From a virus (lineage: Duplodnaviria > Heunggongvirae > Uroviricota > Caudoviricetes), in IMG/VR virus record IMGVR_UViG_3300028388_003891, positions 5,513 through 69,512 of that record: a DNA stretch of 64,000 nucleotides. One strand, given 5' to 3'. The notes beneath the pieces were generated by a model, which did not search any database, had not been told where the DNA came from, and worked only from the letters and a program-made list of their open reading frames with translations. This document shows positions 4,476-57,915 of this stretch, one piece after another; positions within the stretch are counted from its first letter, which is position 1, and every line of letters begins with the position of its first letter. Made by a program: the position numbers and the translations under genes.

Positions 4476-5483
4476 ATGTCCAACAAACTTGATCCTAAGG
4501 GTCTAGCATTTGCCATTGTTCTGATTAAAGAGCAAATCGCCAAGCTGTCAACAAAGTTTGATAGTCGCCTTGAAGAAGTAACTTTGACGCCTGGCCCTAA
4601 AGGGGAAAGAGGCGAACGAGGCCCCCGTGGTGAACAAGGACTGCAGGGTGAACGAGGTGCACGTGGTCGTCGTGGCGAAAAGGGCGACCAAGGACCCCAA
4701 GGGTTACAGGGGTTGCCTGGCAGTAAAGGAGACAGCGGCGAGCAAGGCCCTAAAGGCGAGCAAGGCCCTAAAGGCCCTAAAGGCGAGCAAGGCCCTCAAG
4801 GCCCTAAAGGCCCTAAAGGCGACAAAGGGGATCAAGGACCACAAGGCCCTAAAGGCCCTAAAGGCGAGCAAGGTGACCGTGGTCTAAAAGGAACTAGTGG
4901 CGACCAAGGCCCTAAAGGCGACAAAGGTGACCGAGGACCACATGGCCCTAAGGGCGACAAAGGTGACCGAGGACCACAAGGCCCTAAAGGCGACAAAGGA
5001 GATCAAGGACCGCCCGGCGAAACACCTGATATCACTGAGTTCATGTCCAAAGCTCAGGGACAGATCACGGCGTGGGAATCAAAGGCTAATAGAGCTCTAG
5101 CAACGTCCACGGCTGGCGGTGGTTCGTTTAAACTACTCGATAACAGCGACGTTGTTCGCAAGCAACTAAGCGAAGTTACTGACAAAGCAATCCTGATATA
5201 TGACGTAAATAAGGGTAAATTTGTAGTTAGTGACATTGAGGAAATTATACTTTCTCTTGGTCTTGGAGCCACACAGGTGCAGTACACACGTCTAATCGAC
5301 GCCGATGGCAATGACACATATATCGGCGAAGCAGTCCCCGGCAGTGATCCTAGTGCTGCAGTATGGCGCATCAAACGGGTGACAGAAGATCCTGTTACCG
5401 AAGACATTACCATTTTATGGGCTGATGGTTCTGCTGAGTTCACTTTCATCTGGGATGACCGACTGTCGTTCAATTATTCATAA
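4476..5483 (+). CDS. collagen-like (Gly-X-Y repeat) protein, probable virion decoration/fibre
   Basis: 335 aa; about 47 consecutive G-X-Y triplets ([19 protein letters not shown]...) from aa ~38-180, globular C-terminal domain; underlying DNA is a 9-nt periodic repeat. Confidence 0.8.
4560..5030 (+). repeat. tandem 9-bp periodic repeats (GGCCCTAAAGGCGAGCAA-type) encoding the collagen-like tract
   Basis: direct visual repetition of ggccctaaaggc / ggcgacaaaggtgaccgaggacca units. Confidence 0.8.
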
Positions 5484-5528: not shown

Positions 5529-7328
5529 ATGCCAACCATCACAGATCCGGATCTGTTGAATGATTCCGCTGTAAACACTGGGAGCAATGAAGTATTCATT
5601 GACCCGGCGTTACGCACGATTCGCCTTAACAACGGTTCCAATAACTTAGATGAAACGGGCGTAACAGGTCAGGCTCTTTACTCCTTTCTCAAAGAAGAAT
5701 GGAAAGATGATACCAAAGGCAAGAACCTAATCGCGTATCCGTTCCCCCTTGTCGCAATTACCCCAGAGCAATTTGAATTTCGATCTGGTTGGCAGCCTGC
5801 CAACGACAGCTCACGCAACTTGATTCGCAATGCTGGCTGGAGAGAATTTGCCACTAACAACACCACTCTGAACCGAGAGTACATTGGTACAATTTCGCTC
5901 GGTTCAATCGACGGCGACCAATCTCAAACGGGAGGCGGCGATCAGGATTTTGCGTACTACGCGTTCTTCGATACAAGTGGTGCACCAGTTGCTGGTCCTT
6001 TCAACTTTGATTTCCCAGGACCAGTCAACCAGCCTGTACAAACGTACGACAGTTCCTCTTACGACTACCGTACCAACATTCTAACGATGTTCATCCGTCA
6101 ACCTGGAAAAACGTATGATCAGCAATCTACGGTTCAGATTGGTATTCCAGCTGGTGCAACACTACCGTATAACACCCAGCGTTTCCCTCTACAGGAAGCT
6201 GTTGATCTGAACGTAACTGTGTCAGATGCCACGATTGTAGCTAATGAAGGCGCTGGTGAAAAATACGACAGTAGCGATGTAAACGGCCCCACAATACAGT
6301 ACCTCAGCGACTCCGAGCTTTCTAATACGTTCGGCTATACGCAGGATCTTGTGGATGGTCCACACGGCTTTGGTATCAAGATCTCTGCAGAAGATGGAAC
6401 GGGTGGCTCTCTATCGCTGCAAGAGCTATATTCTTGGGTACAATACAAACTACGTCAAGAAGTTAATATCGAAGACAGCGCTGGATCTACCAAAGTTGGT
6501 AAACTGCAGGACCGCTTGCTACAGTTCGTTGGTCCTACCCTTGAAACCTTGAACGCTACAAACCTTGATGGTGGTGGCACCGGCACAGCAATTATCAACT
6601 TCTCAAACACCGACATCAACAACATTGGGCTTCGGGACAACACAGAAACTCTTCGTCCGTTCCCAATTCTGTCTTCTGGTACTCTTTCATTTTCTGATGA
6701 AATCGTACTTGACAGCGCCAATGCTTCGTACTTTGTTTTCTTTGAGTACACCAAATCTACAAGCGTTTCTGATTTGACAATTTCAGGTGTTGGTCCTTCA
6801 GCTGGCGATCCAGCTGTTGACAGTGCTGAATTTTCTTCATCAGCAACAGAACTGCCCCTACTTGCAGCTGATGATTATTTCCGTGTAACAGGTGCTTCCG
6901 ATCCAAACAACAACCAAGTGTGGCAAGTATCAGTATACCGTGACTCCAGCTCGTTCTCTGCTGTGACTTACGACGATCTTCCCGCAGCAAACGAAGGTCC
7001 GTTTGCCGGCACCATTCGAGAGCACCCAATCAATTCACCTGGAGCCTTGTTGGTAGACAGTGCAGGTACAACAACACCAAATACAGGCGGAATCACCGGC
7101 ACGTTGACTGGCGGTATTTCATCTGTGGCATTCTCCTATGACTATACTAACAACAGTCAAGGGGGTCGACCAAGTGGTGTTAACGCAGACACGGTTAACA
7201 TCTTGATCCGTGCTATTGGCTTGGATAATGGATCGTTTGTGGAACTGGCAGGTCAGACAATTACTGATCAAGCACAGACGTACTCAATTATCTCGGCTAT
7301 TGAGCGTAACTACGACAACCCAGCGTAA
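5529..7328 (+). CDS. hypothetical virion protein (599 aa)
   Basis: long ORF in head/tail late region, near-consensus late promoter CATAAATA at 5479-5486, Ser/Thr/Gly-rich. Confidence 0.5.
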   Translation: MPTITDPDLLNDSAVNTGSNEVFIDPALRTIRLNNGSNNLDETGVTGQALYSFLKEEWKDDTKGKNLIAYPFPLVAITPEQFEFRSGWQPANDSSRNLIRNAGWREFATNNTTLNREYIGTISLGSIDGDQSQTGGGDQDFAYYAFFDTSGAPVAGPFNFDFPGPVNQPVQTYDSSSYDYRTNILTMFIRQPGKTYDQQSTVQIGIPAGATLPYNTQRFPLQEAVDLNVTVSDATIVANEGAGEKYDSSDVNGPTIQYLSDSELSNTFGYTQDLVDGPHGFGIKISAEDGTGGSLSLQELYSWVQYKLRQEVNIEDSAGSTKVGKLQDRLLQFVGPTLETLNATNLDGGGTGTAIINFSNTDINNIGLRDNTETLRPFPILSSGTLSFSDEIVLDSANASYFVFFEYTKSTSVSDLTISGVGPSAGDPAVDSAEFSSSATELPLLAADDYFRVTGASDPNNNQVWQVSVYRDSSSFSAVTYDDLPAANEGPFAGTIREHPINSPGALLVDSAGTTTPNTGGITGTLTGGISSVAFSYDYTNNSQGGRPSGVNADTVNILIRAIGLDNGSFVELAGQTITDQAQTYSIISAIERNYDNPA

Positions 7329-7379: not shown

Positions 7380-7589
7380 ATGAGCACATACCTTACTGTT
7401 GAACAAGCAGCAGCGATAGTTGGATGCACACCTGATGAGCTGCTGTTCTATGCCCAGCAAGGTCGTCTGCGTCGCAGTCTTAATGAAACCGACACCACCA
7501 TCGACTGGCAATTCGTCTTTGAAGATGTGATAGCACTTAAAGATGCTCTTGAGCAGCAATCCACAGAAACGCAACTGCTCGAGGAATGA
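7380..7589 (+). CDS. hypothetical protein (69 aa)
   Basis: ORF with GGAG RBS (taggagtatactATG). Confidence 0.4.
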   Translation: MSTYLTVEQAAAIVGCTPDELLFYAQQGRLRRSLNETDTTIDWQFVFEDVIALKDALEQQSTETQLLEE

Positions 7590-8054: not shown

Positions 8055-10000
8055 CCATACACGACGACGCTACAAGCGCAGCTAACTTTAGCGAACCAAC
8101 GGGCATGACAGATCTCGATGGATCTGGCGTCGATGATACTGACCTTGCAATTTATGGAACGCAGTGCGTGTCAGAATCCATGCGTAAGACTGCGCTTGGA
8201 GCGCTTGTGACAGGACCTGCCGCGCGCACACTAGGCACTAATGAAGCGTTTTTTGTATGGTTTAAGTGGTTCGCCCCAAACTCCCTTGCCAACAAAGCAA
8301 ATGGAGGCATCCGAGTACTGATTGGCAACACAACCGCTAACTACTACGGATGGTATGTCGATGGCGCCGACACTTACCAGTACGGTGGTTGGAAAAACTA
8401 CTGTGTTGATCCTCGATTTACAAACGACGCACAACAACAGCAAGGCACCCCCAATACCACCTACCAGCAAGTAGGTATTGGCGTCAACTGCCCTATAGAC
8501 ACACCTCAAAAAGGTAACTCGTACACGATCGATATCATTCGATATGGTCGAGGACAGTTGCTAATTACGGATGGGGATGGCACACTTGGCTATGCGAACT
8601 TTGACAGTGCTGCTCTATTCAATGACTCTGTCAATGGTCGTTATGGCTTGTTCCAGGATCAGGGTGGCTCGTATCTGTGGAAAGGGCTGCTGTCGTTAGG
8701 TTCTTCGACAACCGCTGTTGATTTTAGAGATCAAAACGTCACGATCAATATCGACAATACAGAGTACGTTGACAGCGATTTCAACCGAATCGAGATCAGC
8801 AACGCTGGTTCAAATGTTGAGTGGACTGGCATTTCCATATCATCACTAAGCGCCCGTGCACGCGGTAACCTGCAAATGGTCGATGGTGCTGCCGTATCAA
8901 TGAACGGTTGTAATTTCAACGATATGGGGTACTTCAATTATAACCGCATATCCAACGTTGTCAACGTATCATCGACGTCATTTCGTCGATGTAATGTAGT
9001 ACGTCAAGGAGGGGCCACATTCACGGATTGTGTTTTTGAAGACACAAACGACTCTGCATATGCGTTGCATGTCAGCGATTCTGGAAATGATTTAAGTCTA
9101 ATAAGTGGTTGCACATTCACGGCCCGCGATCAAGGCCTTGGGGCCAATCACGCTATACGCCTTGGTCCCGTCAACCAAACTAAGACTATCTCTCTAGATA
9201 ATGTGACCTTGGAGGGGTACACAGCAGGAGCTACTGGAACTTTTAACGGCGTGACTGGTGGTGACAGTGCTGCTATTGAGGTTGGCGTAACTACCGGCAA
9301 CACGTTAACGATCAATGTGGTTAATGGATCGACGACGCCATCGATACAGAATACGGACACTGGCACTGTCGTCGTGCAAGCAGCGGTGACTGTATCCATT
9401 ACTGGGCTGTTGGGTAACAGCGAAATCAAAGTCCTGCCTACTGCAGGATCGCCTTACTCAGGTAACTCGCTCAATGATACATTAGATATCTCTACAGAAA
9501 ATGTGAGCGCCGACACTTTTATCGGTAATGGTACCGACTACATCTCCTACAACACTGGTGGCTCCAACGTATCCATCGATACCACTAACCTAGCTTTCTC
9601 TGGTGTCCTTAACGATGGTGACATCGCTGCCACAGCTTTAACAGCTGGTGATATCATCCGTGTAACTATTCGCGATAATGATGACAATTCGTCTCTACAG
9701 CTTTTTGATCAGTTTGAAGTATCAGGTACACCCACATCAACTAGTATAGCAACAACGACACTGTCCTCAGGGTTTGTGTCAGTGTTTGGAACGGCACTGA
9801 CAGGCTCTAATAGCAAAACGGTCACTGTGGAAAAGGTCAATGCGTCGTATCAATTCAGTGTATCGTCTGGCACCGAGATTGATTTCCTTGTATTCCGCAC
9901 CGGTTCAATTCCTATCCAAACCACACAGCAGACGATTACTGCTGATAACCGAACCTTTCCGTTATCGCAAAGTGGCGACCGTAACTTCGATAATCCGTGA
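8024..10000 (+). CDS. repeat-rich protein with parallel beta-helix-like repeats (tail fibre/spike-like)
   Basis: 658 aa; repeated N-x-S/T, GxxF and VxNxS strands (NVVNVSSTSFRRCNVV..., LISGCTFTARDQG...) typical of right-handed beta-helix proteins. Confidence 0.5.
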   Translation: MAAPSYSTDLAIHDDATSAANFSEPTGMTDLDGSGVDDTDLAIYGTQCVSESMRKTALGALVTGPAARTLGTNEAFFVWFKWFAPNSLANKANGGIRVLIGNTTANYYGWYVDGADTYQYGGWKNYCVDPRFTNDAQQQQGTPNTTYQQVGIGVNCPIDTPQKGNSYTIDIIRYGRGQLLITDGDGTLGYANFDSAALFNDSVNGRYGLFQDQGGSYLWKGLLSLGSSTTAVDFRDQNVTINIDNTEYVDSDFNRIEISNAGSNVEWTGISISSLSARARGNLQMVDGAAVSMNGCNFNDMGYFNYNRISNVVNVSSTSFRRCNVVRQGGATFTDCVFEDTNDSAYALHVSDSGNDLSLISGCTFTARDQGLGANHAIRLGPVNQTKTISLDNVTLEGYTAGATGTFNGVTGGDSAAIEVGVTTGNTLTINVVNGSTTPSIQNTDTGTVVVQAAVTVSITGLLGNSEIKVLPTAGSPYSGNSLNDTLDISTENVSADTFIGNGTDYISYNTGGSNVSIDTTNLAFSGVLNDGDIAATALTAGDIIRVTIRDNDDNSSLQLFDQFEVSGTPTSTSIATTTLSSGFVSVFGTALTGSNSKTVTVEKVNASYQFSVSSGTEIDFLVFRTGSIPIQTTQQTITADNRTFPLSQSGDRNFDNP

Positions 10001-28947: not shown

Positions 28948-29468
28948 TGAGTCTGCGTAATATAGCCCTTTCCACCAATCCAGCAGAGTTGTCTCATACT
29001 GAAGAGGATGATGTTCAGCCAAATGCTGTCGACATACGTCTCGATAAAGTGTGGCAAATTTCCAACGAGACGTTTACCCTCAGTGATAGTCACAAGGGGC
29101 ATCGTGGGTCCGAAGAGCTGTCGTTTACCCGTCATTTCCCCGACCATGAAGGCGAATGGATCGATCTATATCCAGGCAGCTATGAGTTTACCGCTAGAGG
29201 TACTGTGCTAGTTCCGCCTGGGTTCGCTGGGTGGGTAGTTACTCGAAGCACACTGAACCGTAATGGTGTCTTCATAACATCCGGCCTGTACGATAGCGGC
29301 TATCATGGAGTAATGGCCGGCGTAATACATGTATCTTGCGGTCCCTTTCTGGTTCAGCGAGGAACACGCATTGGTCAGTTTATACTTGTCGACGCTGAAA
29401 CATCTCATCAGTACGATGGCGATTACGGTTTGGGTAAAAAGCACGATGATAAGTACACGACTGCGTAG
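28947..29468 (+). CDS. dCTP deaminase/dUTPase-fold protein
   Basis: AVDIRLDKVW...VLVPPGFAGWVVTRSTLNRNGVFITSGLYDSGYHG...IGQFIL matches Dcd/dUTPase fold pattern. Confidence 0.6.
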   Translation: MSLRNIALSTNPAELSHTEEDDVQPNAVDIRLDKVWQISNETFTLSDSHKGHRGSEELSFTRHFPDHEGEWIDLYPGSYEFTARGTVLVPPGFAGWVVTRSTLNRNGVFITSGLYDSGYHGVMAGVIHVSCGPFLVQRGTRIGQFILVDAETSHQYDGDYGLGKKHDDKYTTA

Positions 29469-29576
29469 CACAATCTGGTAGTGCGCTGAACTCTAAATTC
29501 ATGAGATAACGGTTCAAATCCGTTCGCAGTCACCATATATACACCGCAATGACTAATGACTTTAAGGGAAACAAAC

Positions 29577-31104: not shown

Positions 31105-31452
31105 GGGCGTTCCATTAACGAAATTCGATGAAGCACAACGAACGGTGCTAAGGACGGGGGTTCGATTCCCCCCACCTCCACCAAAAAGCATACTCTTCCC
31201 GCGAAAGCGGTGCGATGGAAGTCGTCATAATCAACCAAGGGAGTATGCTTTTTGATGGGGGTGCACTGGCTTCGACTTGGACTTAATAGCTTGTGTGGAG
31301 AATAGGTGCGGAAGCTACCTTAAACGCAACAAAGTAAAAAAGTGACGCAGCTAATGATGCTGTGTATGATGTGGCTCTAGCAGCCTGATCATACTGGGGA
31401 TTGACTATCCTTATTATCCAATAAGTCCGGGCAGGTTAAACCTGCCCGTTTT
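31105..31452 (+). ncRNA. ssrA: two-piece (circularly permuted) tmRNA gene (ssrA): acceptor piece ending CCA at 31183, excised stem-loop 31184-31256, coding piece from 31257 with tag ORF 31347-31388, terminator 31429-31452
   Basis: GGGGG-TTCGATT-CCCCC T-arm + CACCTCC-A-CCA; perfect 12-bp inverted repeat AAAAGCATACTC/GAGTATGCTTTT; GGGGGTG...GGCTTCGAC 5' piece with G3 opposite U70; tag GCAGCTAATGATGCTGTGTATGATGTGGCTCTAGCAGCCTGA = AANDAVYDVALAA; 5' boundary approximate. Confidence 0.75.
31429..31452 (+). terminator. rho-independent terminator ending tmRNA coding piece
   Basis: GGGCAGG-TTAAA-CCTGCCC + GTTTT. Confidence 0.75.
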
Positions 31453-48430: not shown

Positions 48431-48438
48431 TATAAATA
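48431..48438 (+). promoter_or_regulatory. late promoter TATAAATA
   Basis: exact match upstream of basic-protein gene cluster 48557-49957. Confidence 0.55.
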
Positions 48439-48556: not shown

Positions 48557-48943
48557 ATGCACGACGGTAAAACCGTTAAAGAAAGCGACTGCAACAAGCG
48601 TAAAATGAGGGGTAGGTCGTTTAGTAGTATGACGACCGACGAAATTGGCAACCTGCCAAAAAACAAAACTGCTTTAGGTCATCAACAATCGTCAGACAAG
48701 TCTGCAGCACATCAGCAAATTAAAGACCTGTATGCGCGCCGTGCTCAGACAAGCGGACATGGCAAACGTGCTAAAATCACAGCTCGGATTGACGCTCTCA
48801 AAAAGCAGCACGGCATCAAAGAAGATGGTGAGGACATGATTGTTGAGGGTTATGGATCCGTATTCAACAACATAGATAGCGACAATGACAAGATAGTGCC
48901 AGGCGCGTTCCAGCGATCACTTAAAAAGCGTAAACTACGCTGA
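48557..48943 (+). CDS. basic Lys/Arg-rich protein (internal/DNA-binding protein candidate)
   Basis: ORF downstream of TATAAATA 48431-48438. Confidence 0.4.
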   Translation: MHDGKTVKESDCNKRKMRGRSFSSMTTDEIGNLPKNKTALGHQQSSDKSAAHQQIKDLYARRAQTSGHGKRAKITARIDALKKQHGIKEDGEDMIVEGYGSVFNNIDSDNDKIVPGAFQRSLKKRKLR

Positions 48944-48956
48944 ACGAGATACACAT

Positions 48957-49388
48957 ATGCACGGTCTGCGTCATAGAGGCTACAAGGACAACAGCCCCCT
49001 TATGAAGGCCTACGACCAGGCGCAGAAACGTCGAATGAGTGGCCTAACTCGTGCGCATAAGCGTCTCAACAAAGAAAACGCTGAGCATCTTGATGAGCTG
49101 CGTAAATCCACGTATGCTAAGTACATTAGCAAAGCAGCTCGTTCTTCTTCGTACAACATGAAGGATGCAGAGACGTCAGACCAAGATGCCGATTACCACA
49201 ATGCGCGTGGCAACGAGTACCACCCAAACAATATGACGCCTGGCAACACATTGAAAAGTGAGCCTACTGCCAAAATGCACTACAAGATGGCTGATAAGCA
49301 TCGTGCCGCTGCAGGTAAGTCTCGCGCTAAGATGCTCAAGCGTCACAAGGGCGTTGACCGTGCTTTGCGACTGATGATGCAAAAGTAA
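48957..49388 (+). CDS. basic Lys-rich protein
   Basis: ORF. Confidence 0.45.
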   Translation: MHGLRHRGYKDNSPLMKAYDQAQKRRMSGLTRAHKRLNKENAEHLDELRKSTYAKYISKAARSSSYNMKDAETSDQDADYHNARGNEYHPNNMTPGNTLKSEPTAKMHYKMADKHRAAAGKSRAKMLKRHKGVDRALRLMMQK

Positions 49389-49957
49389 TGGAAAAGTACA
49401 AGCCGAGCAAGCACGAATGGGGCAAACCAGCTTCCACTCGTCTTGCAAAGAAAATCACACCTAATGAGAAGGTAAAAATGGAATCGTTCGAGTCATTCAT
49501 TTGTGAGATCAGCCAAAGTACCAAAGACCGTTACCTGCGTCGAGCGACTGGTGATGCGACTATGGCCAACTTTGCAAAACGTAGCACGTCTGGCAAAGAG
49601 CAAGAGTACTGGGCACGCAAAGAGAAGAATCGCAAGAAGGGTATCGCGCGAGCTCTTCCAAAAAGAAACTACACTGCTGAATCGAGCAAGCCCAAGCCGA
49701 TTGCGAGTGTGAGTTCTACTTCCGGGTCGAACACGCATTACATCCATCACTGGGACAATGGCGAGATCACATCCCACGGTGGCCGCAGCAAAACATCTCT
49801 GGCGCTCTCTAACCACGCCTTCAATCATCGAGGTGGAACCAAAGCAGCGGCGAAGGCAGTGACTGATGTTGTAAAGAGCGCAAAGAACAGCGATGATCTT
49901 GCCAATAAGTTGAACAGCAGTCGCCTTGGCTCAACTAACTGGAAACCAGTAAAATAA
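49388..49957 (+). CDS. basic Lys/Ser-rich protein
   Basis: ORF. Confidence 0.45.
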   Translation: MEKYKPSKHEWGKPASTRLAKKITPNEKVKMESFESFICEISQSTKDRYLRRATGDATMANFAKRSTSGKEQEYWARKEKNRKKGIARALPKRNYTAESSKPKPIASVSSTSGSNTHYIHHWDNGEITSHGGRSKTSLALSNHAFNHRGGTKAAAKAVTDVVKSAKNSDDLANKLNSSRLGSTNWKPVK

Positions 49958-50113
49958 TTTTCGATTGCCTGGTTGATAAACGACACTAACGGACTATATA
50001 CTATCACTATGTTGACGAATTTACATACAACAATACTCCCCCAAAGTAATCGCCCACTGATTGGCGGTTGGGGATCGTATTGTGTGGCGTTTGAGCGCAA
50101 AGATCCCAACATA

Positions 50114-50169
50114 GTCCCCCTGATGAGTCTTATCGGAGACGAAACGCAAAGCTAAAGTAGCGTCGGGGA
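50114..50169 (+). ncRNA. type I hammerhead ribozyme motif (HHR-1)
   Basis: GUCCCC(stem I 3')-CUGAUGA-GUCU/UAUCGG/AGAC(stem II)-GAAA-CGC...GCG(stem III)-UC^-GGGGA(stem I 5'); predicted cleavage after C50164. Confidence 0.6.
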
Positions 50170-50275
50170 AGAGAGAAGAAAATCTTCCCCCAGCTACCAC
50201 GAACTGTGAGCGTGGGAATCGCGGAGGGCAACAAGTCTCTTGTGACGGAAACCGATGCGACTTATCACAAATTAA

Positions 50276-50361
50276 CGCGGGATATACAAGCGGTCAACGT
50301 GATAGGGCTCATAACCCTATACCTTAGTGTTTCGTGGGTTCGAATCCCACTCCCGCAACCA
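50276..50361 (+). tRNA. initiator tRNA-fMet-like (CAU), atypical 14-nt variable region
   Basis: acceptor CGCGGGA/TCCCGCA with C1-A72 mismatch, anticodon stem-loop GGG-CTCATAA-CCC, 3' end CCCGCAACCA identical to E. coli tRNAfMet; T-arm GTGGG-TTCGAAT-CCCAC. Confidence 0.55.
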
Positions 50362-50734
50362 AATTAACAGGCTGCCTTTCACATAGCCTGTTTTGACCGG
50401 CCCCTGTTTTTCCTCCTCCTTTTCGCAGGGGCCGGTCACCCTCTCCCCCGTTGCCCTCAATCTGACATTAAGAGATAATGTCTATGTTGAATTGAGGAGG
50501 CACCAATGAGCAAATACATTGTTTTCCAAATCGAAGTGACCCGCGCCATGGCCGACAAGATCGAGGTGTGATCGACATCAGAGAGTCGATAATGCCGACC
50601 CACGTCACACTGGCGATTGAAGACGGCCGCCTGATGGTCGTCGACGGCAGTGGGTATGACTTCATCATTGAGGAAGAAGATGAAACACAATCCAGTAGCT
50701 AAACACGCACACAAGTTCAACAAATGCGCCAAGC

Positions 50735-50992
50735 ATGTTGACCGTAAGGCGCGTTCTAAGCGAGGATATCGCAAACACAGGAGAATTGATAATGGGTGTT
50801 GAGAACACAAATGTGGATACCAAAGAGCTCATGGTCGAGATTGATCTTGAACTTGGATCACTTGCGGCGCGGATCGCAACCGGCCTAACGTACAGCGAAA
50901 TCGTCGCGTTCGTTGAAATGATTGATAGCGAGGTATCCGACACCGAGTTTACGGACCAACTGATTAACGCCGTCCTACGCCTCAATGATTAA
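50735..50992 (+). CDS. hypothetical protein (85 aa)
   Basis: ORF inside tRNA array. Confidence 0.3.
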   Translation: MLTVRRVLSEDIANTGELIMGVENTNVDTKELMVEIDLELGSLAARIATGLTYSEIVAFVEMIDSEVSDTEFTDQLINAVLRLND

Positions 50993-51044
50993 CTGCCCTG
51001 ATGAGTCTTACAGGAGACGAAACGCGCTGATAGCGCGTCGGCAG
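50993..51044 (+). ncRNA. type I hammerhead ribozyme (HHR-2) whose cleavage site is the 5' end of the downstream tRNA
   Basis: CUGCC-CUGAUGA-GUCU/UACAGG/AGAC-GAAA-CGCGC/UGAUA/GCGCG-UC^-GGCAG; cleavage after C51039. Confidence 0.75.
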
Positions 51045-51121
51045 AGTACACCCGTAACTGGTAGCGGCCCGCACTGTAACTGCGCATAACGTTGGGGGTT
51101 CGAATCCCTCCTCTGCCACCA
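51040..51121 (+). tRNA. tRNA with GUA anticodon (Tyr-type), 8-nt variable region, irregular D region
   Basis: acceptor GGCAGAG/CTCTGCC, anticodon stem CGCA/TGCG loop CTGTAAC, T-arm GGGGG-TTCGAAT-CCCTC, A73, CCA. Confidence 0.5.
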
Positions 51122-51136
51122 AATTGAAAGGAGTTT

Positions 51137-51499
51137 GTGATGAATAAACGCTTCACGATTATCGCTGCGATAGTGATAGGCATCGGTAGTTTGTTTACTC
51201 TTTACGAAGGGGTCAAAGCTATCCGGCAGTATGCGTGGAACCATGAGGTTGTTGACGCTCGTCCCGTCGGTCCCGTTCGCACTGAGCAACGATTGATCGA
51301 ATGTGAGTATACAGGAATATGCTCTCGCTTTGATCCGCTGAACGGCGAGATGAGAACGGGGTTATCATCCTTTTGTCGCGGTCACCGTCCGGTCGTTGCT
51401 CGCATACAAGATGTGCAAGAGACGCTTCGTAACGGCGAGCAACGAATTCGAGAAGAGATAATGAGTCGCACAATCGTCGAGGGCGTAGCATGCAGATGA
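51137..51499 (+). CDS. membrane-anchored protein (120 aa)
   Basis: N-terminal TM helix. Confidence 0.4.
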   Translation: MMNKRFTIIAAIVIGIGSLFTLYEGVKAIRQYAWNHEVVDARPVGPVRTEQRLIECEYTGICSRFDPLNGEMRTGLSSFCRGHRPVVARIQDVQETLRNGEQRIREEIMSRTIVEGVACR

Positions 51500-51533
51500 G
51501 CAAAGACGTAACCAAAGAGATTCTCAAAACGAA

Positions 51534-51607
51534 AGGGGATTAGCATAACGGTAGTGCGTCGGACTCTGACTCCGAATGTGGTGGTTCAATTCCACCATCC
51601 CCCGCCA
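51534..51607 (+). tRNA. tRNA-Gln (CUG)
   Basis: acceptor aGGGGAT/ATCCCCC, anticodon stem TCGGA/TCCGA loop CTCTGAC, T-arm GGTGG-TTCAATT-CCACC, G73, CCA. Confidence 0.65.
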
Positions 51608-51612
51608 ACAAA

Positions 51613-51688
51613 GCAGCTTTAGCAATGATGGTTCATGCGCTGGCCTGAAGTCCCAGATATCTCGGTTCGATCCCGAGGAGCTGCACCA
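51613..51688 (+). tRNA. tRNA-Phe (GAA)
   Basis: acceptor GCAGCTT/GAGCTGC, loop CTGAAGT, T-arm CTCGG-TTCGATC-CCGAG, A73, CCA. Confidence 0.65.
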
Positions 51689-51708
51689 AACAACAAAGGC
51701 GATGAGCA

Positions 51709-51969
51709 ATGTATGCAGTTCCCGAACGGTTTGATGTCCAGGCGCTTGGACGCACGATTACAGTGGTCTCCACGGCGAAGCCAGAAGATGGCGTGTATCA
51801 ATTGTGCGTAGAGATAGATGGCGAAATGGTACAGCTCGATACCTCGGTGCGAATAGAAGGACAGGAACTCTCATATATGATTCACGAGGAGGGGTATCAC
51901 GACATCTTGTTCCGTCTGGTTGCAGACGCAATTGAAGAACAGATGGGCCGTTCAGAAGCAAACAGCTAA
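51709..51969 (+). CDS. hypothetical protein (86 aa)
   Basis: ORF in tRNA array. Confidence 0.4.
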   Translation: MYAVPERFDVQALGRTITVVSTAKPEDGVYQLCVEIDGEMVQLDTSVRIEGQELSYMIHEEGYHDILFRLVADAIEEQMGRSEANS

Positions 51970-51970
51970 A

Positions 51971-52048
51971 GCGCCTGTAGCCCAATCAGGTAGAGGCAGC
52001 GGCTTTAAACCCCGTTCAGTGTGGGTTCGATCCCCTCCAGGCGCACCA
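51971..52048 (+). tRNA. class-I tRNA with UAA anticodon (Leu-type anticodon, 5-nt variable loop)
   Basis: acceptor GCGCCTG/CAGGCGC, anticodon stem GCGGC/CCCGT (1 mismatch) loop TTTAAAC, T-arm GTGGG-TTCGATC-CCCTC, A73, CCA. Confidence 0.5.
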
Positions 52049-52082: not shown

Positions 52083-52301
52083 ATGAGTCTTTTGGAGGAT
52101 AAAACAATGGGTGAACGAACAATTCCTGCTCCAACAGAGCATCACTTCAGCTTTGCGACGGCAGTGGTCGATAATATGGTTCGCAACTGTGGAATCACAA
52201 GCTCCGGCGAAGACATCGATAAACTTAAAGACGCGATGGTTTCGTGCATTGCCCACCGTGACGCAGAGATCCTGTGGCTGCGCAAACTGGTGCATCCGTG
52301 A
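52083..52301 (+). CDS. hypothetical protein (72 aa)
   Basis: ORF. Confidence 0.3.
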   Translation: MSLLEDKTMGERTIPAPTEHHFSFATAVVDNMVRNCGITSSGEDIDKLKDAMVSCIAHRDAEILWLRKLVHP

Positions 52302-53101: not shown

Positions 53102-53470
53102 TTGCATCAAGGATGCTGCAAAGGCGTTGATCGCGAATGCTACCTAATGGCAGCAGACAATCCAGACTACGACATAACGATTTACTCGTACCCACCAATT
53201 AATGATCACTATGCGATCAAGTGCCTCGGTCATGTCAATTACAAGCCACAGCCGTTCCTTGTACGCGATCGTGCTCTGGTAGATGCGGCGGATATTCTGC
53301 TATCGATGCCACTTACTGATTACGAGACATTTCGCAGTGGTACATGGTACACTACACGCTATGCTCTGCAGCAGGACAAGCCTGTCGTACTGATTCAACC
53401 TAACGGCACTAGTGTGCCTGCTGATGAAATTGAGAGATACTTACTACCTGGAAAATGGGGTGAAAGGTAA
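53102..53470 (+). CDS. hypothetical protein (122 aa)
   Basis: ORF. Confidence 0.4.
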   Translation: MHQGCCKGVDRECYLMAADNPDYDITIYSYPPINDHYAIKCLGHVNYKPQPFLVRDRALVDAADILLSMPLTDYETFRSGTWYTTRYALQQDKPVVLIQPNGTSVPADEIERYLLPGKWGER

Positions 53471-54435
53471 TGGAATTCATCAAATACAGCTCGATTGAGA
53501 ATCACTACCGTGAGAAGGTTGTCGACTGGTATCGTGAAAATGGATTAGAAAACGTCGGATGGATCTTGACGGAGAAGATCCATGGCGCTAACTTTTCTTT
53601 CTGGTGCAACAGCAGCGAAGTCAAGGTCGCATCTCGTAACCAATGGGTCGACAGCACATTCTATAGCTGTCAGGACATCATCGACGCGTACACGCCCGTT
53701 GTGCTAGAGCTCGCTACTTTCTTCCCCAACAGCACTGTAGCTGTGTATGGGGAGCTGTACGGACCCGGTATTCAGAAGGGGGTCAATTACGGCGACAAAA
53801 AAGATTTCGTTGCCTTCGACATTCGAGTTGACGGATACTTCCTAGATCGTAATAAAGTACATGTGTACATCGCTGGTGCAAACCAGCTGACATTACAAAA
53901 GCACGGTCAGAGGTCCACCTTGATGGACGTTGTCCCTATTGTTGGCTCGACAGTGTCACTAACACAAGTGCTTGAGTTTGATAACGAGTTTGTATCTGTG
54001 CTTGGCCGTCTCAATGGTGTCGACGACGATGCCAACCTTGCTGAGGGATTCATTGCAACGCCAGTCGGCAAAGCGTACCAACGCATTGGCAGCGACCGTG
54101 TGATCCTCAAATCGAAAGGTGAAAAGTGGACAGAGAAAAGCAAGAAGGTAAAGACGCCTCGTGCTCCTGTTACTGAGCACCCACTGACATCAACGGTTGA
54201 GCAGTATGTCAACACCAACCGTGTCGATGCTGTCACAAGTAAGATGGGCCCGTTGACTCCAAAGGACTTTGGTCGGATCATTAGGGCTGTTTGTGATGAT
54301 GTCATTGATGACATGGTGAAGGACGGTGATGTTCGTAGCTGCTGGCGCGATGACGAAGAGACGAAAGACCTTGGCAAGGTTGTTAACAAAGTGGTAGTGC
54401 CTTTCCTCAAGAAAGAGCTGCTACCGACGTTGTAA
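53470..54435 (+). CDS. RNA ligase 2 (T4 Rnl2/gp24.1-like)
   Basis: KYSSIENHY and adenylation motif KIHGANFSF match T4 Rnl2 N-terminus; nucleotidyltransferase plus C-terminal domain size. Confidence 0.75.
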   Translation: MEFIKYSSIENHYREKVVDWYRENGLENVGWILTEKIHGANFSFWCNSSEVKVASRNQWVDSTFYSCQDIIDAYTPVVLELATFFPNSTVAVYGELYGPGIQKGVNYGDKKDFVAFDIRVDGYFLDRNKVHVYIAGANQLTLQKHGQRSTLMDVVPIVGSTVSLTQVLEFDNEFVSVLGRLNGVDDDANLAEGFIATPVGKAYQRIGSDRVILKSKGEKWTEKSKKVKTPRAPVTEHPLTSTVEQYVNTNRVDAVTSKMGPLTPKDFGRIIRAVCDDVIDDMVKDGDVRSCWRDDEETKDLGKVVNKVVVPFLKKELLPTL

Positions 54436-56082: not shown

Positions 56083-56245
56083 ACTACAACACCGGTTAGT
56101 GATACGAGTAACGATTAAGTTACAGTTGTGGAGCGGTACTATTAGGAATGGCTACAGCATCTAATTACTACGCAGCCAAAGAAAGCCATTCCGTAACAAT
56201 TAAGAGTGTTTGCAGCAACTAATCTTCCATGCTAAGGACGAGGCC

Positions 56246-56271
56246 GCAGGTTCGAATCCTGCTCCCCGCCA
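56246..56271 (+). other. orphan tRNA 3' half (T-arm + acceptor 3' strand) fused directly upstream of tRNA-Ala 5' strand
   Basis: GCAGG-TTCGAAT-CCTGC-TCCCCGCC then ATCGAC then GGTGGGGG; CCCCGCC/GGTGGGG can pair as a hairpin; no complementary 5' acceptor strand upstream. Confidence 0.3.
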
Positions 56272-56277
56272 TCGACG

Positions 56278-56400
56278 GTGGGGGTAGCTCAGCGGTAGAG
56301 CGCGTAGAAATACACTCTGTTTATTTTTGGGGGTGCCGTATGGGACGGACTTAGCCCTTGCAAGGCTGATGGTCGGGATCGTTACCCGATACCTCCACCA
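56278..56400 (+). tRNA. tRNA-Ala (UGC)-like gene with ~48-nt insertion or duplicated 5' half
   Basis: canonical 5' acceptor+D-arm GTGGGGG-TA-GCTCAGCGGTAGAGC (56278-56301), then 48 nt including a second possible 5' strand GGGGGTG (56329-56335, gives G3-U70), then anticodon arm TTAGCC-CTTGCAA-GGCTGA, T-arm TCGGG-ATCGTTA-CCCGA, 3' TACCTCCACCA. Confidence 0.4.
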
Positions 56401-57821: not shown

Positions 57822-57915
57822 GGAAGGTAATGCAGTGCCGATGGTGGCGCGACTGGCCTTGAAAACCAGGTCCCGGCTAAAACCGGGTGGGGTTCGACTC
57901 CTCTGCCTTCCGCCA
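57822..57915 (+). tRNA. tRNA-Ser (UGA), class II
   Basis: acceptor GGAAGGT/GCCTTCC, loop CTTGAAA, long variable arm hairpin CCCGG-CTAAAA-CCGGG, T-loop TTCGACT, G73 CCA. Confidence 0.7.

Follow-up and report, generated by a model that had tools for sequence, protein, structure and literature searches.

The window, i.e., the whole stretch of 64,000 nucleotides of viral DNA analysed here, derives from a distantly T4-like phage, whose DNA polymerase shares no more than 46% identity with any entry of the phage collection. On the plus strand of the window, 30 tRNAs and one permuted tmRNA are encoded, and an Rnl2 ligase gene lies within the tRNA array. All features described below are given in window coordinates and lie on the plus strand unless stated otherwise. 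A motif scan placed a T4-type late-promoter motif, TATAAATA, at 48431-48438; this motif occurs six times in the window against 1.5 expected, and none of 100 shuffles reached six. The putative promoter precedes a block of genes (48557-49957), and the nearest gene upstream of the region of interest ends at 49957. A weak sigma-70-like promoter candidate (TTGATA-18-TATACT, 10 of 12 consensus matches) follows at 49973-50002, about 110 nt upstream of a hammerhead ribozyme motif at 50114-50170; such sites number three in the region versus 2.2 in shuffles. No terminator-like site was found on the plus strand between 49300 and the hammerhead, and the late-promoter motif at 48431 is, judging from the sequence, a likely source of read-through transcripts that would enter the ribozyme.

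Downstream of the hammerhead lies a tRNA unit. Its spacer holds an element (50191-50267) conserved with positions 6250-6325 of another phage locus, L130, with reciprocal nhmmer E-values of 1.5e-4 and 4e-4 and 77% identity over 57 nt. In L130, a strong promoter-like site (TTGCTT-17-TATAAT) opens the tRNA array and the counterpart follows it directly, which suggests that the 5' end made by the ribozyme in the window would roughly correspond to the transcription start in L130. No convincing fold common to these two sequences was found, and the spacer had no blastn match among 50,697 phage records. The spacer was rejected as a small ORF, with differences distributed 7/7/7 over the codon positions, 2 synonymous versus 11 non-synonymous changes, and a reading frame that would traverse the tRNA. 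There was no support for a degenerate or permuted tRNA or a COG2908-type motif either, and ARAGORN and Rfam gave no tRNA-like match within 50165-50275. The tRNA itself (50276-50361; ARAGORN, Rfam 45.3 bits) has a CAT anticodon, an encoded CCA, and the hallmarks of a bacterial initiator, namely a C1xA72 mismatch, a GGG/CCC anticodon stem, and A11-U24; its variable region of about 14 nt is unusually long compared to CAT tRNAs of other phage arrays. An earlier note on this DNA had put this initiator-like tRNA about 110 nt from the predicted cleavage site, and the measured distance is 111 nt. The unit probably ends in a terminator-like hairpin (ACAGGCU...AGCCUGU followed by UUUU, 50367-50394, -10.8 kcal/mol), recognised by reading the sequence and missed by the consensus terminator scan because its loop exceeds 8 nt.

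A paralogous hammerhead at 50993-51044, identified by structural scan, covariance model, and core identity, begins directly after the stop codon TAA at 50990-50992. It is predicted to cut after C51039, precisely where a tRNA with anticodon GUA has its +1 position; this tRNA-Tyr-like gene (51040-51121; Rfam tRNA model, 40.4 bits) is fused to the ribozyme. This tRNA has the anticodon loop CUGUAAC, a short variable region, and an encoded CCA; it is detected by Rfam and missed by ARAGORN, and is 89% identical to a hammerhead-fused tRNA in contig L156.

Megablast of 49000-52000 against the 50,697 phage records returned no match, the exact core pattern of the hammerhead was absent from IMG/VR, and no close relatives were recovered from IMG/VR via the Rnl2 ligase and an exonuclease. 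The 189-aa upstream protein matches only itself and one non-syntenic partial relative, and four window proteins looked up by identity had no entry on record. No orthologue of the 50114-50170 copy was found in any collection, in the metagenome scan, or in the related phages L162 and L171.

Anatomy and statistical support of the hammerhead

The sequence 50114-50170 reads GUCCCC-CUGAUGA-GUCUUAUCGGAGAC-GAA-ACGC(AAAGCUAAAGUA)GCGU-C-GGGGAA. Stem I consists of five base pairs formed by U50115-C50119 with G50165-A50169, leaving G50114 and A50170 unpaired. The core elements are CUGAUGA at 50120-50126 and GAA at 50141-50143. They are separated by stem-loop II (50127-50140, GUCUU-AUCG-GAGAC), which has a 5-bp stem and a 4-nt loop, and are followed by stem-loop III (50144-50163), in which ACGC (50144-50147) pairs with GCGU (50160-50163) to form 4 bp around a 12-nt loop. 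The topology is that of a three-helix type I hammerhead, in which loops cap stems II and III while stem I is open. With the strict consensus of Perreault et al. 2011 (PMC3088659) as criteria, all invariant positions are present, namely C3-A9, G12-A14, the A15.1-U16.1 pair (A50144 with U50163), and H17. The latter is C50164, within a GUC triplet, and alignments to both the Rfam model and the covariance model described below place the predicted self-cleavage site (GUC|G) between 50164 and 50165. The earlier note had proposed this core and this cleavage site, and every element was found at the coordinates it gave. In hammerhead chemistry, the 5' product ends in a 2',3'-cyclic phosphate, which here would be carried by C50164, and the 3' product begins with a 5'-OH, here on G50165. 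Two aspects of the anatomy are less favourable. The 4-bp stem III with its 12-nt loop is short compared with the 5-12 bp seen in relatives, which counts against an active ribozyme, and inspection of the flanks by eye showed no obvious complement to loop II (AUCG) that might provide the stem I/II tertiary contact (loop-loop or pseudoknot) on which fast cleavage at physiological Mg2+ depends.

The Rfam Hammerhead_1 model matches the motif end to end with 26.8 bits (E = 2.4e-4 in a 601-nt search against all families), which is below the gathering threshold of 34 bits; at that threshold, no hammerhead is reported in the whole window. The earlier note had held that a below-threshold score would argue against the motif, and the score does fall short, but the threshold proved to be an unfair arbiter for this class, since textbook phage type I hammerheads score 28.1, 32.3, and 33.9 bits and none of the canonical ones in other loci is reported at gathering either. 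Therefore, 84 non-redundant type I hammerheads of viral and metagenomic origin, none of them from the window, were used to build an independent covariance model (R1). Searched against the whole window with filters off, R1 gave 52.1 bits (E about 9e-15) for 50114-50170 and 59.9 bits for the paralogue (50992-51045), while the next-best match, which is not a hammerhead, reached 11.5 bits (E 0.38). That the two hammerheads stand alone in a search space of 128 kb counts for an active ribozyme. A structural scan of both strands likewise yielded two type I candidates, 50114-50170 and 50993-51044, compared with 0.16 expected in shuffles. The further cores that the earlier note had thought worth seeking in the rest of the array and genome thus amount to one more copy, and, by its sequence, the window holds exactly two hammerheads. 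A candidate third copy at 52083-52105, belonging to repeat family D2, was discarded, as it has no CUGAUGA and is missed by R1.

A sub-family associated with phage tRNA arrays

Both window copies belong to a hammerhead sub-family with a 5-bp stem I and a stem-loop II of the form GUCY-UANNNG-RGAC; the 50114-50170 copy has GUCU-UAUCGG-AGAC, compared with GUCC-UAUCGG-GGAC in L128 and L130. To retrieve members, IMG/VR and metagenomes were scanned for a pattern that combines the core with the signature of stem-loop II. In at least 12 viral or metagenomic contigs, the sub-family is fused to a tRNA with cleavage predicted at the tRNA +1 position (L124, with two tandem copies, L128, L130, L133, L134, L138, L144, L146, L156, L164, and L171, the last of which was reached via its Rnl2 ligase), and the fused tRNA is tRNA-Tyr in every fusion recovered by the pattern scans. 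Further members are located in 5' untranslated regions (L131, L132, L161, L139, L151, L152, and L129). The fusions with cleavage at +1 tie the sub-family to the processing of phage tRNA operons. Like them, the 50114-50170 copy is located within a large phage's tRNA array and on the same strand as the tRNAs; cleavage at +1 of tRNA-Tyr is seen in the paralogue at 50993 and not in this copy. The literature search returned no description of natural hammerhead-tRNA fusions in phages, and this kinship with a tRNA-Tyr-maturing sub-family, absent from the literature found, is one of the features that make the 50114-50170 copy unusual, along with its place at the head of a tRNA unit and its extreme competing hairpin.

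An alignment of 22 sub-family members was fitted to the model and hence leans towards the structure, although stems I and III lie outside the retrieval pattern; in it, 93% of cells are paired versus 70% in shuffles, and 12 of the 15 pairs show changes on both sides. The covariation score was 0.69 versus 0.21 in shuffles, none of 500 of which reached it, and slid controls scored 0.13 or lower. A 5-bp stem I with the outermost position unpaired is the norm in this alignment. Between the two window copies, which share CCCUGAUGAGUCUUA..GGAGACGAAACGC, a 30-nt core of 93% identity with 15 plus 13 nt identical, the outer three pairs of stem I differ by compensatory double changes (U-A to C-G, C-G to U-A, and C-G to G-C), indicating that stem I pairing has been maintained in each copy. 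Taken on its core, stems, covariance models, and sub-family covariation, the motif at 50114-50170 is, at the level of sequence, a genuine type I hammerhead of a phage sub-family that lives in tRNA arrays and is, as a rule, fused to tRNA-Tyr. Sub-family membership and the partial conservation of the spacer in another phage are two aspects that the earlier note had missed.

Neither the class of ribozyme nor its occurrence between phage genes is new; what is unusual is the context of this copy at the head of a tRNA unit. The intergenic type I hammerheads of phages and prophages (RF00163, clan CL00010; PMC3088659) have the same core, three-stem junction, open stem I, and intergenic location, and the genomes that contain them often hold several copies on one strand (PMC3088659). 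The window copy differs from them in heading a tRNA unit, in its short stem III with a 12-nt loop, and in an unusually strong competing hairpin. With the tRNA-Tyr(+1) fusions it shares the signature, the occurrence in large phages with tRNA arrays, and the strand logic; moreover, after cleavage the 3' strand of stem I is reused in both as the 5' side of a product helix of 7-8 bp. In the fusions, this helix is the acceptor stem of the tRNA and cleavage makes the mature 5' end, whereas in the window copy it is a simple hairpin, with the tRNA (CAT) 111 nt further on, so that RNase P would still be needed.

The direct and closest analogue, judged by its arrangement, is a non-fused hammerhead in L171, a related phage with an Rnl2 ligase 54% identical to that of the window. 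There, a DUF7230 small ORF is followed by a tRNA-Tyr-fused hammerhead, 9 nt, the non-fused hammerhead (8612-8661), a spacer of approximately 115 nt, and tRNA-His. The same order as in the window, i.e., hammerhead, non-tRNA spacer of about 113-372 nt, and tRNA, is found within the tRNA arrays of L039/L015, L079/L119, L046, and L107 as well as L171. In contrast to the window, the spacers of L171, L039, L046, and L107 bear a COG2908-RNA-like ACCUUnnGGUGUAA, and the hammerheads of all these loci have no comparable competing hairpin and usually follow a tRNA rather than a block of protein genes.

Among engineered systems, the RiboJ insulator is a synthetic hammerhead with a hairpin placed directly after the cleavage site, which gives transcripts a defined 5'-OH end whatever the promoter. 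The RiboJ hairpin is not known to sequester the stem I strand, as the hairpin in the window is predicted to do. In the likewise synthetic hammerhead-tRNA 'transzymes' (PMC3675464), a 5' hammerhead strips the upstream sequence and leaves a defined 5'-OH end. Theta (HDV-like) ribozymes, described in gut phages of Bacteroidota and Bacillota, are also small self-cleaving ribozymes within phage tRNA loci, for which a role in maturing tRNA precursors independently of host nucleases has been proposed (Kienbeck et al. 2024, PMC10879173). However, they have an HDV-like fold, are located 3' of the tRNA, and trim the trailer, whereas the window motif is a hammerhead predicted to cut near its own 3' end. 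No HDV-like family was present among the Rfam matches at the locus up to E = 10, which places it outside the theta ribozymes.

The competing hairpin and the folding of the motif

The earlier note had described a 7-bp hairpin downstream of the cleavage site that would exclude stem I. The pairing and the exclusion held in the folding predictions, and the hairpin turned out to be longer. GGGGAAG (50165-50171) pairs with CTTCCCC (50184-50190), and A50172-U50183 brings the helix to 8 bp (GGGGAAGA/UCUUCCCC, 50165-50190) around a purine-rich loop of 10 nt; it is part of the minimum free energy (MFE) fold. The 3' strand of stem I doubles as the 5' arm of this hairpin, so that the active ribozyme cannot form at the same time. 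Alone, it is predicted at -12.4 kcal/mol, compared with -8.5 for the stem I duplex. An extended alternative fold (50157-50197, -19.9 kcal/mol) adds a 5-bp clamp of GUAGC (50157-50161) with GCUAC (50193-50197) around the hairpin; this clamp also invades stem III and can form in uncleaved RNA only.

Constrained folding showed that the hammerhead fold is never the MFE structure, which counts against activity. For the isolated motif, it lies 3.0 kcal/mol above the MFE because CUGAUGA can pair with UUAUCGG. The penalty rises to 5.7 kcal/mol once the hairpin has been transcribed, to 10.5 kcal/mol with 30 nt downstream, when GCUAC clamps GUAGC, and up to 13.8 kcal/mol with the whole spacer included. 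At +30 nt, the value of 10.5 exceeds those of all 138 other phage type I hammerheads (median 0, 90th percentile 2.8, maximum 5.8). In the paralogue, the hammerhead fold is itself the MFE structure, with a penalty of 0 at this length that rises to 1.6 once the tRNA is complete. These nearest-neighbour energies take into account neither the tertiary stabilisation gained in the hammerhead core nor the order and kinetics of co-transcriptional folding. On these predictions, the competing hairpin is real, stronger than first described, and specific to the 50114-50170 copy. A 5'-terminal product hairpin as a general design of phage hammerheads was rejected (38 of 133 versus 38 of 133 in control windows), and so was the hairpin as the acceptor stem of a body-deleted tRNA, as there are no U8/A9 or T-stem remnants.

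Proposed function and alternative explanations

The reading favoured here, to which we assign a probability of about 0.55, is an active hammerhead that cuts co-transcriptionally and frees a leader-initiator-tRNA precursor from read-through or leader RNA. Transcripts would arrive from the upstream late-gene block and perhaps also from the weak promoter at 49973; the late-promoter motif with no terminator in between counts for this reading. As G50165-A50169 leaves the polymerase, the three-way junction is expected to form and, as the motif predicts, to cut itself after C50164. Cleavage would part the upstream RNA, which keeps the ribozyme and the cyclic phosphate, from a 5'-OH 3' product consisting of the conserved leader element, the initiator-type tRNA, and the terminator-like end. 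The first 8 nt of this product could then pair with 50183-50190. Being stronger than stem I, the hairpin would free the 5' fragment, block re-ligation, and give a base-paired 5'-OH end, and RNase P, by general tRNA biology, would later trim the leader at 50275/50276. The polymerase reaches the 3' arm of the hairpin about 15-25 nt beyond the end of the completed ribozyme, and the alternative fold is favoured by 6-14 kcal/mol; kinetically, this suggests a brief window for co-transcriptional cleavage, after which the RNA would be locked uncut. At this locus, a late mRNA and a tRNA unit meet at a defined junction occupied by a canonical hammerhead, which its sequence links to a sub-family predicted to make the mature 5' end of phage tRNA-Tyr, a tRNA already implicated in escape from retron and Septu defences (PMC11555353, PMC13096335). 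If active, it would represent a natural hammerhead transcript insulator with a built-in kinetic lock, and a simple test case for the control of ribozyme yield by downstream structure in vivo.

A bolder extension, which we consider unlikely, is that cuts by the hammerhead and by RNase P delimit a functional small RNA of phage tRNA operons, approximately 111 nt long (50165-50275), with the hairpin acting as a 'cleave-or-lock' timer and the sub-family forming a host-nuclease-independent system for 5' ends of tRNA operons. In such an RNA, the hairpin would cap the 5'-OH end, and the element in common with the array leader of L130 would be included; as a timer, the hairpin would set the release of the small RNA and the initiator tRNA from late read-through transcripts. 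If this holds true, the sub-family would be the 5' counterpart of the theta ribozymes.

The main rival to active cleavage, and clearly the less probable of the two, is that the hammerhead linked to tRNA-Tyr was copied to a site upstream of the tRNA-fMet unit and that the motif is this copy, now inactive or in decay. Trapped by the downstream hairpin and by the internal CUGAUGA/UUAUCGG pairing, it would hardly cleave and have no function of its own. Its folding penalty at +30 nt, the largest of the 139 phage hammerheads, and its stem III, the weakest in the sub-family, fit such decay, and so does the lack of an orthologue in any collection, the related phages included. The 93% identity to the paralogue over 30 nt is compatible with recent copying and counts against active cleavage, since a recent duplication could explain it and the intact core need not then reflect selection. 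On the other hand, each of the 13 core positions is preserved, as is the optimal GUC triplet, and stem I has been re-matched to a wholly different 3' strand via the three double changes, which is unexpected in a dead copy; the chance of five stem I pairs is about 0.001-0.007. Furthermore, the energies that make the penalty so large omit core tertiary stabilisation and co-transcriptional folding order, and non-fused hammerheads followed by spacers recur in other tRNA arrays. If inactive, the copy would be a record of such modules duplicating and decaying.

In the earlier note, the hairpin was read as a plausible folding switch. In this improbable case, it would be a programmed off-state, with the cleaved fraction set by transcription speed, pausing, or a factor that holds its 3' arm, and would tune the release of the leader-tRNA or the share of upstream mRNA that keeps a 3' extension. 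The 3' arm (UCUUCCCC) is indeed an extended mimic of the 5' strand of stem I (UCCCC), the second 5-bp clamp invades stem III, and competition this strong is unique among the hammerheads compared, a product hairpin being no general feature of them. However, no ligand- or protein-binding element was recognised. Release of the product with protection of its 5' end, or else decay, would be a simpler account of the same anatomy, and the competition would suit an attenuated or dead copy equally well. A switch is in any case a special case of active cleavage and computationally inseparable from it.

It is very improbable that the two ribozymes act as a pair, whereby an 875-nt RNA bounded by 5'-OH and 2',3'-cyclic phosphate ends would be released through cleavage at 50164/50165 and 51039/51040. 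This RNA would comprise the leader, tRNA-fMet, small ORFs, DUF7230 among them, and the second ribozyme, and an RNA ligase might ligate or circularise it. The two hammerheads do lie 878 nt apart on the same strand, multi-hammerhead arrangements flanking genes are known in prophages (PMC3088659), and ligase genes are at hand, i.e., Rnl2 in the array and RtcB in the related locus L168. Against this, the terminator-like hairpin, a 13-bp perfect inverted repeat (50394-50438), and a promoter-like site (50451-50479) all lie between the copies, and the terminator-like and promoter-like signals suggest separate transcription units; in addition, Rnl2 requires 5'-P and 3'-OH ends, and related phages carry the tRNA-Tyr hammerhead without a second partner.

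A chance motif within a real coding ORF (49973-50155, or 49825-50112 or 50021-50200 on the minus strand) can practically be dismissed, since the ORFs of 59-95 codons that do overlap the site have no Pfam match, that at 49973-50155 has a TTG start and no ribosome-binding site, the genes in this part of the window are on the plus strand, and the RNA model gives E about 1e-14 with a paralogue present. A small ORF ending at TAG 50112-50114, as in the paralogue and L171, was also rejected, its frame being full of stop codons. The earlier note had likewise doubted that ORF 49973-50155 is coding; with its TTG start, the lack of a family match, and its overlap with the 52-bit RNA match, it is very probably non-coding.

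Fusion of hammerheads to tRNA-Tyr genes

At least 12 distinct contigs, from phages or metagenomes, carry members of a phage type I hammerhead sub-family fused to tRNA-Tyr (GUA) in such a way that self-cleavage is predicted exactly at tRNA position +1. The tRNA partner is Tyr in every case. In the window, the fusion spans 50993-51121; among the other viral and metagenomic loci compared, it was found in L124 (6478-6760), L128 (1013-1150, reverse strand), L130 (8394-8525), L133 (6604-6731, reverse strand), and the related phage L171 (8480-8605), and also in L134, L138, L144, L146, L156, and L164. Given the predicted hammerhead cut at +1, RNase P would not be needed to form the mature 5' end of this tRNA. 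The literature that could be searched yielded no description of such a +1 fusion. An anti-defence role of phage tRNA-Tyr is known (PMC11555353, PMC13096335).

The tRNA-Tyr-like gene of the window (51040-51121) scores 40.4 bits in Rfam and was missed by ARAGORN. It shares with several of its relatives a short variable region, in contrast to the long-arm (class II) tRNA-Tyr of bacteria; the long arm is retained in the hammerhead-fused tRNA-Tyr of L128, L134, and L144. As for the ribozymes, scores against the Rfam type I family (RF00163) are 25-34 bits for short phage type I hammerheads whose cores and stems are perfect, just below its gathering cut-off of 34, and for this reason the whole class will be missed by standard annotation.

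The hammerhead-tRNA-Tyr module is syntenic with a small basic ORF that carries the motif KRGYRKH and matches Pfam DUF7230 (36 bits, cut-off 27). This ORF is located at 50650-50802 in the window, reads into the hammerhead in L130 (8287-8460), ends with a stop codon that abuts the hammerhead in L171 (8377-8480), and lies directly upstream of each hammerhead in L128, L134, and L144.

Conserved motifs downstream of hammerheads in other phages

A COG2908-RNA-like motif (ACCUUnnGGUGUAA) recurs directly downstream of hammerheads within phage tRNA arrays, namely, in L171 (8663-8698), L039 (2232-2255), L107 (about 7505-7530), and L046 (about 5405-5430 and 8322-8366), where one copy reaches 70.7 bits, above gathering. 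Directly ahead of the next tRNA, the spacer ends in AAAGCAAAACCAYAC in L107 and L046, and in the looser GAACC(A/G)(A)CAUUUU in L039 and L171. The 3' products of a different hammerhead group (L074, L079, L119, L109, and L067) contain a second conserved motif, GGAGUWUCCC-(5-6 nt)-GGGGAAUAACUGGAWRCC. In L130 (6325-6400 and 6644-6760) and, after tRNA-Tyr, in L128, elements 50-90 nt in length are bounded by repeated UUUAGAAUAGA...UCUAUUCUAAAACACAC stems; one such element has a T-loop-like GGGUUCGAAUCC, and these elements may represent processing stems or tRNA-like RNAs.

The initiator-type tRNA and other genes of the tRNA arrays

The initiator-type tRNA of the window (50276-50361) has a variable region of ~14 nt. 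This insertion is absent from the counterparts with a 1:72 mismatch in the arrays of other phages, which have lengths of 74-78 nt. Directly after the terminator-like hairpin of this tRNA unit, a perfect 13-bp inverted repeat (50394-50438; UGACCGGCCCCUG ... CAGGGGCCGGUCA; -28 kcal/mol) encloses a pyrimidine-rich loop of 19 nt.

In the window, the main tRNA array is preceded, at a distance of roughly 20 kb, by phage genes for an amber suppressor tRNA with anticodon CUA (29459-29535; labelled 'Pyl' by ARAGORN) and a permuted (two-piece) tmRNA (31123-31388, 95 bits). Two sub-threshold tRNA-like matches in array gaps, at 57822-57911 (41 bits with the tRNA-Sec model, whose gathering cut-off is 47) and 56238-56306 (YrlA-like, 28 bits), are probably unusual or long-arm tRNAs overlooked by ARAGORN. 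An Rnl2-family RNA ligase gene lies within the tRNA array (53470-54435), and a related phage locus (L168, 1-710) carries RtcB in addition. RtcB ligates exactly the type of ends left by hammerheads, 2',3'-cyclic phosphate and 5'-OH.
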